From Aliivibrio fischeri ES114 (lineage in GTDB: Bacteria; Pseudomonadota; Gammaproteobacteria; Enterobacterales; Vibrionaceae), in assembly GCF_000011805.1 (NCBI RefSeq), contig NC_006841.2: a stretch of 32,000 nucleotides of DNA; one strand, written 5' to 3'. The first letter of the stretch is position 1, and the number at the start of each line of letters is the position of its first letter. The notes under the pieces are model-generated. The model had not been told where the DNA came from. It was given only the letters and a program-made list of their open reading frames with translations, and did no database searches. Position numbers and translations under genes: made by a program. Below, in pieces: positions 12,350 to 29,825 of the stretch.

Positions 12350-12480
12350 AAAAAAAGGGACTCAATGACTCGAATGAGTCCCAAATCTGTAATATCCATT
12401 TACAGTAATACTTATAAATAAGGAGTAAATACACCTTATCACTATGTCATTTATTAACCAACTGTTAAATAAAACAGGTT
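12350..12480 (-). ncRNA. sRNA-like element, copy U0 (homologous to the two units in cassette 29262-29705)
   Basis: Minus-strand 5' block aacctgttttatttaacagttggtt, a central hairpin carrying ACUCCUUAU, and the terminator gggactca / tgagtccc + U7. Confidence 0.45.
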
Positions 12481-12620: not shown

Positions 12621-12948
12621 TTAATTACCTCGCCTTTAGTTATCATGTTGGAGATTATTAGAAAATCACGGAAATACAACTTCAGTAACTGTAAAATATT
12701 ACAGTTTTAATATTTGTATTAGCACCTAATTTCAGGGAGTAACATACTGATATTAAAGATTATTATAACTCATACTTGATGCTTTTATACTGTTATTATT
12801 TAATAAGTTTCTTGTTACTTATTTGCATTTAAAGAAAGGAGTAAATCTATTATTGGAAACTATAAATATTTGCATTAATCATTGACATTACACTAAGGGG
12901 AGAGTTTAAAGTTAACTCAAATGTACAAATTGATTAATGAGGTAACTT

Positions 12949-17784: not shown

Positions 17785-17886
17785 TAACGCCGCAATAACA
17801 CGTGCGAACGACCGACTTTCAAAACCAATTACACTCCAAACCACAAACGCCGAGTGTAATTAGCATCGTGTTGATTGCTTTGTTAC
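17785..17886 (-). repeat. attC subtype E (102 bp)
   Basis: taacgccgcaataacacgtgcgaac ... gcatcgtgttgattgctttgttac. Confidence 0.9.
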
Positions 17887-18345
17887 ACGATCTTTGTCAA
17901 CGCTTCGCTTTAATTGGTAAAGAACTGATTTACCGATAATATTTAAAAACCAATTCTAAATTACAAAAGCTAATTTAGCGAACAAAAGAACCGTTCAACT
18001 ACAAAAACTGCGAAACGAAGCAATCCTTTTTCTAGCACCATTTTAACGATTTAGTTTCAGCAAGTTTGGGGCTGATAAACCAAATATCCTAACCACAATT
18101 GGGATTGAAAATGCTACGAGCAAAGCACGAATGCAGGATAAAATGAGGCAACACCAAAGAACAATTGAAGCGTGAATTGGTTTCTGAAATCCATGAACTT
18201 TTGGCAATAATGGTTAATTGCCGAACCTGATGAAACGGACATTAAAAGGCAACAAAGAAAAAGGAAATCCACCCTACTTTCACGTCTAAAAAACTAACGG
18301 CTCAATCACTGGACTGAGCCAAAAAACTGCAATCTTTAGTTCGTG
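17887..18345. repeat. ORF-less integron cassette, family copy A1
   Basis: No ORF of 60 aa or more. Near-identical to 23856..24314 and shares conserved core blocks with 23276..23733. Confidence 0.85.
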
Positions 18346-18467
18346 TAACGCCTGCATAACACGTTTGCTACGATACAGACCTAGCTGAATTTTACTGCCT
18401 TAATCACTGAAACTAAAGGCAAACTGACAACGCCGAGTGTAGCAAATCGTATTGATGCATTTGTTAT
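18346..18467 (-). repeat. attC subtype B (122 bp)
   Basis: Both arms intact (one A for G change in cgtattgatg). Confidence 0.92.
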
Positions 18468-18988
18468 GCCTGTGCATATTTATGTGAATACAAAACAACC
18501 AATTCATCTAATGCTTGTCTAGCTAAAGCAATATTTTCTCCCGTTCTTTCAAAGGCTTCACGATTGTGCGCAGCAGCTTGAGTACTAAAACCATATGAAA
18601 CATCATTTCGATAACTTTTGATTAGGACTTCATAATGAGCAACGTAATTATTTTGAAAATCGGCACATGCATCTCGAAACTCAGGAAAATATATTAGCGA
18701 TAATGAAAAAGCTTTTCTTGCCGGTATATTTACACCGTATTTTGTTATTTCATCCATACTTTTGCATTCACCAGCCTCAACACTCCAGACTAAGGATTCC
18801 TGAATACAATCCATCAATTGTTCATACTTTTCACGAAGTAGTACATTTTTAAGATGTTTTTTATTTAGGTGCTCCTTCAGTAAAACTGCAAATTGAGAAA
18901 CTAGTACACCAGCAAGAGCTGAACTTGCCGAAACAACTGAAATTAATACTGTTTTATCCATTACATTATTCTCACCAGAAAAAGGCAT
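18464..18988 (-). CDS. hypothetical protein with N-terminal TM helix
   Basis: 174 aa. TM 'VLISVVSASSALAGVLVSQFAVLL' followed by a helical domain. The first ATG lies in the GTTATG of the upstream attC; the alternative ATG at 18961 has a ggtgag SD. The stop codon lies inside its own attC. Confidence 0.65.
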   Translation of the reverse strand: MPFSGENNVMDKTVLISVVSASSALAGVLVSQFAVLLKEHLNKKHLKNVLLREKYEQLMDCIQESLVWSVEAGECKSMDEITKYGVNIPARKAFSLSLIYFPEFRDACADFQNNYVAHYEVLIKSYRNDVSYGFSTQAAAHNREAFERTGENIALARQALDELVVLYSHKYAQA

Positions 18989-23154: not shown

Positions 23155-23275
23155 TAACGCCTGCATAACACGTTTACTACTATACAATTATACTGAATAT
23201 TGATGCCCTAAAACGAGAAACACTCGGCAAACTGAGATTGCCGAGTGTAGTAAATCGTGTTGATGCGATTGTTGT
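23155..23275 (-). repeat. attC subtype A (121 bp; R'' variant ..gcgattgttgt)
   Basis: Both arms present. The core reads GTTGT rather than GTTAT. Confidence 0.9.
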
Positions 23276-23733
23276 GCGGACTCTCTTTCGGCTTGGACAA
23301 CTTGGTAAAGAACTGCCCCGCCAAAATTGTCTAAGCCCTGATTCTAATTTAACGATGCTAATTAAGCGAACAAAATGTTCTTAAACTGCGAGATGAAGTA
23401 AATGGAAAACAGATACATTTTTTACACCATTTGAACGACTTGGTTTCAGCAGATTTTGAGCTGATAAACCAAATATCCTCGCCACAACTGGGATTGAAAA
23501 TGCTGCGAGGAAAACACGGATGCAGAGTAAAATGATGCAACACCAAAGAACCATTGAAGCGTAAAAATGCCTCTGAAACGCCTGAACTTAGACCGACAAT
23601 GCTTAATTGCCGAACCTGATGAAACGAACGCTAAAAGGCAACAAAGAAGAGGATTTGTGATAGCTAAATAGCGTTTAAAAAAAGTCTCGTTTCTATTGAG
23701 GAACCGTGCAAAAAATTTCGGGCTTAGTACGCA
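23276..23733. repeat. ORF-less integron cassette, diverged family copy B
   Basis: Shares blocks of perfect identity with A1/A2 in a ~210-bp core. The listed 62- and 96-aa ORFs have no ATG start or no counterpart in the other copies. Confidence 0.8.
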
Positions 23734-23855
23734 CAACGCCGCAATAACACGTTTATTACTACGACGACGTAGCTGAATTTTACTGCCTTAAACACCGAAA
23801 CCAAAGACAAACCTACAACGCCGAATGTAATAAATCGTGTTGATTGCTTTGTTAC
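23734..23855 (-). repeat. attC subtype D (122 bp; R' reads caacgcc)
   Basis: caacgccgcaataacacgtttattactacg ... cgtgttgattgctttgttac. Confidence 0.9.
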
Positions 23856-24314
23856 ACGATCTTTGTCAACGCTTCGCTTTAATTGGTAAAGAACTGATTT
23901 ACCAATAATATTTAGAAACCAATTCTAAATTACAAAAGCCAATTTAGCGAACAAAAGAACCGTTCAACTACAAAAACTGCGAAACGAAGCAATCCTTTTT
24001 CTAGCATCATTTGTACGATTTGGTTTCAGCCAGTTTTGAGCTTATAAACCAAAAATCCTTACCACAATTGGGATTGAAAATGCTACGAGCAAAGCACGGA
24101 TGCAGAATAAAATGAGGCAAAACCATGAACAATTGAAGCGTTAATTGGTTTCTGAAATCCATGAACTTTTGGCAATATAGAGTAAATTGCCGAACCTGAT
24201 GAAATGAAATCTAAAAGGCAGCAAAGAAAAAGGAAATCCACCTTACTTTCACGCCTAAAAAACTAACGGCTCAATCGCTGAACTGAGCCAAAAAACTGCT
24301 ATCTTTAGTTCGTG
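23856..24314. repeat. ORF-less integron cassette, family copy A2
   Basis: Near-identical to A1 (17887..18345) by eye. Confidence 0.85.
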
Positions 24315-24436
24315 TAACGCCTGCATAACACGTTTGCTGCGATACATACCTAGCTGAATTTTACTGCCTTAATCACTGAAACTAAAGGCAAACTGACAAC
24401 GCCGAGTGTAGCAAATCGTGTTGATGCATTTGTTAT
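24315..24436 (-). repeat. attC subtype B (122 bp)
   Basis: Both arms intact. Confidence 0.92.
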
Positions 24437-24440
24437 GAGT

Positions 24441-29111: not shown

Positions 29112-29140
29112 AATTCCTTTTCATGAAAAACCAGTGCTTA

Positions 29141-29261
29141 TAACGCCTGCATAACACGTTTGCTACTATGCAATTATACTTAATATTGACGCCTTAAAAC
29201 GAGAAACACCCGGCAAACTGAGGTTGCCGAGTGTAGTAAATCGTGTTGATGCATTTGTTAT
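29141..29261 (-). repeat. attC subtype A (121 bp)
   Basis: Both arms intact. Confidence 0.92.
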
Positions 29262-29351
29262 ACGTGTCTACTTTAGTTTGAATAAGTACATATACAAAAC
29301 TTAATATAACTTACAGTTCATCACAGCTAAAACAGCACAAGAGGTATGAAT

Positions 29352-29480
29352 AAAAAAAGGGCTCGATGACTGGAATCGAGCCCTGAACGTGAAATGCCTG
29401 TCTACAGCAACACAAAATTAGTGAGGAGTTCCAGTTTATTACTGGAGTCACTCCCAACCAACTGTAAAATAAGACAGGTT
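29352..29480 (-). ncRNA. sRNA-like unit U1
   Basis: Minus strand: aacctgtcttattttacagttggtt, a hairpin containing ACUCCUCAC, gttgctgtagacaggcatttca, then the terminator gggctcga / tcgagccc + U7. Confidence 0.5.
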
Positions 29481-29533
29481 TGTTTTTAACGCTACATCCT
29501 TTGAAATCAAGTGAAACCCTTGATATTTCACAC

Positions 29534-29665
29534 AAAAAAAAGGGACTCATTGGCTAAAATTGAGTCCCAGACATGAAATGCTTGTCTACAGCAACACATA
29601 AGTAAGGAGTGACTACAATTTTATTACATTGACACTACCTTACTAACTGTAAAATCAGGTAGGTT
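29534..29665 (-). ncRNA. sRNA-like unit U2
   Basis: Minus strand: aacctacctgattttacagttagt, a hairpin containing ACUCCUUAC, gttgctgtagacaagcatttca, then the terminator gggactca / tgagtccc + U8. Confidence 0.5.
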
Positions 29666-29705
29666 ACTATTAAATATTTATAATTTGAACGTCATTGATT
29701 TCGTA

Positions 29706-29825
29706 TAACGCCTGCATAACACGTTTGCTACCAAGCAGATTAAGCTCAAATTTACCACTTAACTCGGTAAACCAAAAGAAATCTAGAATGCCGAATGTAG
29801 CAAATCGTGTTGATGCATTTGTTAG
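29706..29825 (-). repeat. attC subtype C (120 bp)
   Basis: Both arms intact. Confidence 0.92.

Follow-up and report, generated by a model that had tools for sequence, protein, structure and literature searches.

A large, recombining family of gene-less integron cassettes in Aliivibrio superintegrons that includes published promoter cassettes

The window, i.e. the whole 32 kb stretch of the Aliivibrio (Vibrio) fischeri ES114 genome analysed here, contains an integron array with ~22 attC repeats of ~100–145 nt, from ~13.2 kb to its high-coordinate end (32 kb). The ORFs of the cassettes lie on the minus strand, with their 3' ends adjoining the lower-coordinate attC. In the standard attC model the recombinogenic strand is the bottom strand, which carries the extra G. 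The extra-helical G of the attC sites in this array was found on the plus (bottom) strand and, because the ORFs also end at the lower-coordinate attC, the sense strand of the cassettes was assigned to the minus strand. An earlier note on this DNA had described three homologous elements, A1 (17887–18345), B (23276–23733) and A2 (23856–24314), and all three were found there. Exact cassette limits were taken from the R' and R'' boxes. Cassette A1 spans 17788–18348 (minus strand) and consists of a body and its own ~101-nt attC (17788–17888), with R' GTTACAC at 18349–18343 and R'' GTGTAAC at 17888–17882. Cassette A2, with limits read from the sequence, spans 23737–24317 (minus strand) and has its own 121-nt attC (23737–23857), and cassette B, which equals the published gene-less cassette F3 discussed below, spans 23158–23736 (minus strand) with its own 120-nt attC (23158–23277). 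An element was accepted as an integron cassette when it was bounded by attC sites with R''/R' boxes and started with a TTRRRY motif complementary to its own R''. A1 and A2 start with TTACAC and carry R'' GTGTAAC; B starts with TTGTGC and carries R'' GCACAAC. This shows that A1, A2 and B are bona fide integron cassettes in a superintegron of the Vibrio fischeri type.

The relationships described earlier between the three elements were reproduced. A1 and A2 are ~93% identical, being separated by scattered substitutions and two 1-nt indels, while B can be aligned well only over a central core and a short block close to the low-coordinate (3') end. The blocks of perfect identity are also real: exactly three copies of the 20-mer TTTCATCAGGTTCGGCAATT (0.0 expected by chance) and three of the 14-mer CAGTTCTTTACCAA (0.3 expected) are present in the window. 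Homology between A1 and A2 (94%) extends through the attC on their higher-coordinate side (18346–18468 versus 24315–24437), which in the minus sense belongs to the preceding cassette, and ends 22 nt into their own attC. This extended homology suggests a segmental duplication by homologous recombination and not a copy made by the integrase. Assignment of A1 and A2 as plus-sense cassettes, based on the homology passing through the higher-coordinate attC, was considered and ruled out by the asymmetry of the attC sites, the orientation of the genes and the association between attC and body. A search for internal repeats in the cassette bodies gave only short matches of chance size, and no match to B was found among the PLSDB plasmids by blastn.

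The distribution of these cassettes was determined by scanning one genome per species with a degenerate pattern and confirming the matches by tblastn, which identified 64 loci. The hosts were A. fischeri, A. sifiae, A. finisterrensis (two genomes), A. logei, three Aliivibrio sp., one Aliivibrio MAG and Photobacterium lutimaris. The cassette bodies matched these 64 loci at ~160 places by blastn, with a single relative orientation throughout, and 127 unique complete copies were obtained. The family comprises at least 125 distinct copies across nine Aliivibrio genomes and one Photobacterium, and the number of copies per genome reaches at least 22, which is a lower bound. The homology behind the earlier proposal of a three-copy family was therefore correct, but its count did not hold, since other genomes contain at least 125 distinct copies. 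Directly adjacent cassettes made up 32 of 72 pairs of successive family members. Among 116 copies, the cluster of the downstream attC tracked the type of the body and that of the upstream attC did not, as is the case for a body that travels with its own attC. This indicates that the members of the family are normal mobile cassettes. Core distances were equal within genomes (0.147) and between genomes (0.150), and the nearest neighbour was in the same genome for 23 of 125 copies, with 16 expected at random. Among the gene-less cassettes of Aliivibrio superintegrons, the paralogous family that includes A1, A2 and B is the dominant one. The sole Photobacterium copy (P. lutimaris, L060) was 0.2% different from an A. 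sifiae copy (L047, 2443–2900), which indicates either a very recent intergeneric transfer or assembly contamination.

Alignment of 125–127 copies showed that the cassettes share a core of ~235 nt, at about 85–320 of the 460 consensus columns, which forms one cluster with a mean pairwise distance of 0.15. The shared core (family consensus 80–325) is located on the minus strand at 18022–18266 in A1, at 23410–23655 in B, where it contains the 21-mer TCGGCAATTAAGCATTGTCGG, and at 23991–24235 in A2. The 5' flank (consensus 1–84) and the 3' flank (321–460), on the other hand, each fall into three mutually unalignable types. Within a subfamily defined by its flanks, distances were 0.06–0.13 for the flanks and 0.09–0.13 for the core, and A1 and A2 had 24 substitutions in 227 core columns versus 8 in 235 flank columns. 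The conservation of a core, as described in the earlier note, is thus seen only in comparisons between subfamilies, and among copies of one subfamily the flanks are conserved as much or more. Linkage, measured as r2, fell from 0.42 for sites up to 20 nt apart to 0.10 for sites 121–200 nt apart, and over the same distances the four-gamete fraction increased from 0.50 to 0.92. Gene conversion or homologous recombination among copies is extensive. The single cluster of cores, the split flanks, the decay of linkage and the equal distances within and between genomes indicate that the core is the segment common to all subfamilies and is reshuffled by recombination. Near-invariant sites in the core were clustered, with 45 runs versus 59 expected and three runs of at least 8 sites versus 0.46 expected, so that some site-specific constraint is likely, and this clustering suggests a sequence-specific role. 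Conservation of the core can be owed partly to exchange and gene conversion and partly to clustered constraint. An inverted repeat in the core, GGCAAT...ATTGCC, was rejected as a candidate element as its register shifts between haplotypes without clean compensation.

Three gene-less cassettes of V. fischeri ES114 were synthesised by Blanco et al. (2024, NAR, PMC11014356), where gene-less means that a cassette has no annotated gene and no ORF of at least 70 aa from ATG, GTG or TTG. Cassette F3, as given in the supplement of that paper, matches the window from 23736 to 23155 with 99% identity over 585 nt (blastn), and the few mismatches are of a kind that could arise when the supplement PDF is read by machine. 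Cassette F2 is 80% identical to A2 and 79% identical to A1 (blastn) over its whole body. F2 and F3 resemble A1, A2 and B in that all are classed as gene-less and lie in the same kind of array in the same orientation. All three V. fischeri cassettes raised expression of GFP on the sense strand by 27- to 101-fold in a plasmid assay, and F3 had the highest activity, being about as effective as Plac. With F3 upstream of a promoterless dfrB9 gene, the trimethoprim MIC rose as it did with the Plac control, by more than 500-fold in V. cholerae and by 2000-fold in E. coli. These reporter assays used plasmids, with V. cholerae and E. coli as hosts, and not the native array or host. F2 was also active in the antisense direction, and its transcription starts, mapped by 5'-RACE, were at position 239, at 408–474 (3' flank) and at 490 and 510 (attC); the authors considered that this scatter possibly reflects spurious initiation on AT-rich DNA (PMC11014356). 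The published F3 data support the earlier proposal that these elements are cis elements carried as cassettes, given the 99% identity of B, and at the same time remove its novelty. As B is 99% identical to a cassette with demonstrated activity as a strong internal promoter, the finding is largely known and does not represent a new RNA.

Non-coding cassettes in Vibrio arrays were also described by Boucher et al. (2006, BMC Evol Biol, PMC1382264), who found them to be paralogous as a rule, with more than 80% identity between species and no synonymous-site pattern, and who put forward two options, selfish elements or carriers of promoters or RNAs. Their entry for V. fischeri ES114 has 7 non-coding cassettes in 2 paralogous groups. 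The families in that study are like the present one in having no ORF, many paralogues per array and a restriction to Vibrionaceae. However, that study gives counts, whereas the present analysis provides the anatomy of the cassettes, coverage of nine Aliivibrio genomes, the modular flanks and a measurement of recombination. ORF-less cassettes of oral Treponema integrons (Sci Rep 2019, PMC6557892) are likewise described as driving reporter expression; they occur in another host clade and another type of integron. A term search of the main text of Blanco et al. (2024) found no statement on the relatedness of F2 and F3, and the 5' hairpin, the core and the family size shown here are not described in the text searched. 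The finding is already covered by the integron literature, and the contribution here is limited to context at the level of the family.

The start zone of F2 (408–474) maps to family consensus ~403–461, in the 3' flank. This flank is located on the minus strand at 17885–17982 in A1, where it corresponds to the F2 start zone, at 23273–23370 in B and at 23854–23951 in A2. Only two islands of the 3' flank are kept in all subfamilies, consensus 361–375 and the 14-mer CAGTTCTTTACCAA at 420–433 (17927–17914 in A1, 23315–23302 in B and 23896–23883 in A2), and these bracket the F2 start zone amid otherwise unalignable flanks. A candidate promoter, TTCGCT-18-TAGAAT, is present at equivalent positions in the three cassettes, with the −35 hexamer at 17982–17977 and the −10 hexamer at 17958–17953 in A1, at 23370–23365 and 23346–23341 in B, and at 23951–23946 and 23927–23922 in A2. 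This site had a PWM score of 7.1. The best scores in a sigma-70 PWM scan of the three cassettes were 7.1–7.4, below the mean maximum for shuffled sequences (8.7), and the sequence therefore does not allow a promoter to be assigned, a conclusion also reached in the paper. Promoter activity was shown for B (as F3) as a whole cassette, and the −35 and −10 hexamers are candidates only. A perfect TATAAT was also observed on the sense strand of the attC of B (23195–23190), within CAGTATAATTG. Many attC sites in the window are of the same type as that of B, and initiation within attC may therefore contribute to the reported activity; part of the activity of F3 could come from its attC.

A terminator-like hairpin was detected at the other end of the A-type cassettes. 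In a scan with the consensus, a 10-bp hairpin followed by a T-run was found on the minus strand of A1 at 18288–18321 (−14.4 kcal/mol, z = −3.8), and the equivalent hairpin and T-run of A2 were at 24257–24290 (minus strand; −12.6 kcal/mol, z = −2.5). In both cassettes the element is on the sense strand, 25–60 nt into the cassette, and the T-run begins 5 nt past the stem, so that A1 and A2 have the sequence signature of a putative intrinsic terminator, a G+C-rich hairpin with a U-tract behind it on the transcribed strand. A hairpin and T-run were present in 40 of 76 A-type copies versus 7 of 125 shuffles, and in the A-type hairpin 94.8% of cells were paired, with one covarying pair (CG<->UA). 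The 5' end of B has a T-run without a hairpin (−1.1 kcal/mol) and lacks this signature. We infer that the A-type hairpin would stop read-through from upstream.

Considered together, A1, A2 and B are probably gene-less promoter cassettes from which transcription starts anew inside the array. Promoter activity has been demonstrated for B, as F3, and for F2, the ~80% relative of A1 and A2, and by this relationship A1 and A2 would behave like F2. Promoter starts on the sense strand, mostly in the 3' flank and attC, would restart transcription of downstream cassettes far from Pc. In A-type copies the 5' hairpin and T-run would first terminate incoming transcripts and, as the hairpin would stop read-through, each A-type copy would constitute a terminator-then-promoter unit. 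The family spreads as ordinary cassettes, because the type of the body goes with the type of its own attC, and copies are exchanged between species and reshuffled by homologous recombination. Several observations were counted against the promoter-cassette reading. The reporter data come from plasmids outside the native array, an arrangement in tandem is hard to reconcile with a promoter, and the 5' hairpin is missing from B. The mapped starts of F2 are scattered and the sigma-70 scores are below those of shuffled sequences. In addition, the core lies mostly upstream of the mapped starts, and promoter function therefore does not explain the core. Gene-less cassettes account for expression of the distant parts of very long integron arrays, and a mobile integron that captured one could begin to express resistance cassettes that were silent, as was seen for dfrB9 with F3. 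What is added here is that the tested cassettes F2 and F3 are part of one large, recombining, cross-species family. The common core, the subtype-specific 5' hairpin and the islands around the start zone provide handles for dissection of the promoter.

The main rival explanation is a paralogous family that is selfish or close to neutral. In this view the cassettes persist because the integrase and homologous recombination mobilise and copy them efficiently, the likeness between species results from recent exchange and gene conversion, and promoter activity is incidental on AT-rich DNA. This explanation is consistent with the equal core distances within and between genomes, with the number of same-genome nearest neighbours, with the close match between the Photobacterium and A. 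sifiae copies, and with the extensive recombination and the many adjacent copies. Divergence within a subfamily is ~10% and even along the whole cassette, the scatter of F2 starts led the authors themselves to discuss spurious transcription (PMC11014356), and selfishness is one of the options proposed for such cassettes by Boucher et al. (2006; PMC1382264). However, the clustering of near-invariant sites and the islands conserved across unalignable flanks indicate a site-specific constraint, and the activity of F3 equals that of Plac, which is well over typical spurious initiation. Selfish or near-neutral spread was judged a clearly less probable explanation than that of promoter cassettes.

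A further possibility concerns the core, which the promoter-cassette reading leaves unexplained. Tentatively, and with considerable doubt, the ~235-nt core may be a functional module defined by its sequence, with neither coding capacity nor structure, either a platform for binding of a factor of the host or the integron or an unstructured pairing RNA. Its role would be in strong promoter activity or in amplification of the cassette itself, for example through transcription across the neighbouring attC that favours folding. In the same doubtful reading, the putative module would be common to subfamilies with unrelated flanks across Aliivibrio and, distantly, to the gene-less V. parahaemolyticus cassettes P1 and P4 of the 2024 paper. 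Weak collinear similarity to consensus 78–210 was found for P1 and P4 (nhmmer 14.6 and 9.5 bits, respectively), and as these scores are low homology is only suggested. The exact 21-mer TCGGCAATTAAGCATTGTCGG, which is at ~23594–23614 in B and in six B-type loci (L001–L005 and L007), is also present in P4. The remainder of P1 and P4, including their attC, is unrelated to the present family. P4 is a very strong promoter, and P4 and F3 are the two strongest cassettes in the paper (PMC11014356).

The earlier note had also proposed a novel structured non-coding RNA or a decayed small gene, and neither was borne out. Conserved structure was sought on both strands with RNAalifold, using 78 diverse cores filtered at 93% identity, and with a covariation scan of all column pairs. 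The consensus fold of the sense strand had a free energy of −5.68 kcal/mol and 25 pairs, of which 2 had any compensatory change, and that of the antisense strand had −2.16 kcal/mol and 4 pairs, none of them compensatory. The scan of all column pairs on both strands yielded no well-supported covarying helix; the sole run with two covarying pairs was 4 bp in length with 148 nt between its arms and is probably due to chance. No match to the window was found in Rfam 15 at the gathering score, and a relaxed search gave only chance-level matches (E-value of 1.4 or higher). The statement that no described RNA family matches was correct for RNA families in Rfam but overlooked the integron literature (Boucher et al., 2006; Blanco et al., 2024). 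An RNA that acts over the core by unstructured base pairing, sense or antisense, in trans or cis on other copies or on other targets, is unlikely. Conservation at the nucleotide level without a codon pattern is compatible with such an RNA, as are the activity of F2 in both directions and an antisense sigma-70-like site on the A-rich strand, TTGGTA-17-TAATAT (17914–17942 and 23883–23911), the −35 of which is within the invariant block CAGTTCTTTACCAA. However, besides the lack of conserved structure, covariation or an Rfam match, only 1 of 125 copies has a terminator-like site after the core on the antisense strand, the mapped sense starts are mostly downstream of the core, and no target is known.

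Protein-coding potential was assessed in all frames. The earlier conclusion that no ORF is conserved among A1, A2 and B was confirmed. The longest ORFs in A1 and A2 are 45–54 aa, below the 70-aa limit for gene-less cassettes; B has a TTG-started ORF of 96 aa (23446–23736), yet the same cassette was selected as the gene-less F3 in the paper. Substitutions between A1 and B were distributed evenly over the codon phases (15/14/9), no peak of period 3 was present in the column entropy of the family alignment, the autocorrelation of variability at lag 3 was 0.05, and the synonymous fraction was close to that expected in each of the six frames, whether all variants or only the common ones were counted. 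The longest sense-strand ORFs fell in different frames, covering all three, from copy to copy, and ORF lengths were equal to those of dinucleotide shuffles (75 versus 66 codons for sense and 57 versus 53 for antisense). Five conceptual translations produced nothing above curated cut-offs in Pfam, and comparison of the 96-aa sense ORF of B with 5.8 billion proteins gave one partial hypothetical protein of A. fischeri only. A type I toxin-antitoxin locus, for which a conserved small hydrophobic ORF with a start and Shine-Dalgarno plus an overlapping antisense RNA was required, was rejected, as the hydrophobic-looking frames of the T-rich strand switch between copies and are of shuffle length.

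The shared minus-strand frame pointed out previously does exist. A frame of ~50–90 aa on the antisense strand (window plus), '...FLTPFVRFGFSKFGADKPNILATIGIENA...KMRQNHEQLKRE...', is open over consensus 190–330 in about two thirds of copies, with 45 hypothetical proteins (59–87 aa) annotated on it in Aliivibrio, V. lentus and one Vibrio sp. These annotated proteins differ in their starts and have at least three alternative C-termini, and the C-terminus of the frame is altered by two frequent 1-nt indels, one after consensus 126 and the other at 188. A profile of the annotated ORFs, when searched against 1.84 billion protein representatives, detected its own family and two unrelated repeat proteins only. 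A small or decayed protein gene on this strand is very unlikely: its open frame, its annotated proteins and the C-terminal changes made by two common indels speak for it, but start codons vary by copy with no conserved Shine-Dalgarno, about a third of copies are broken, the synonymous fraction, lag-3 autocorrelation and ORF lengths are those of non-coding sequence, and neither a Pfam match nor distant homologues were found. The protein-coding tests failed overall, with no single frame kept open, no third-position excess and no homologues beyond the element itself, and for the decayed small gene there was no coding signal in any frame and no intact parent protein family. In the favoured reading, A1, A2 and B encode neither a protein nor a structured RNA, and both the unstructured RNA and the small antisense protein are less likely than selfish spread.

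A further gene-less cassette was observed in the window at 29140–29708 (minus sense), with 86.6% identity to the published cassette F1. It consists of two tandem units of ~184 nt, each with a LexA-box-like CTGT-N8-ACAG palindrome followed, after ~110 nt, by a strong hairpin and a T7–8 run on the minus strand. The exact CTGT-N8-ACAG in this cassette is at 29462–29477, and two more exact boxes with similar flanks are located just beyond the low end of the array, at 12462–12477 and 12689–12704, giving three exact boxes in the window versus 0.3 expected. By their sequence, the repeat units of this F1-like cassette look like sRNA-like units preceded by an SOS box.
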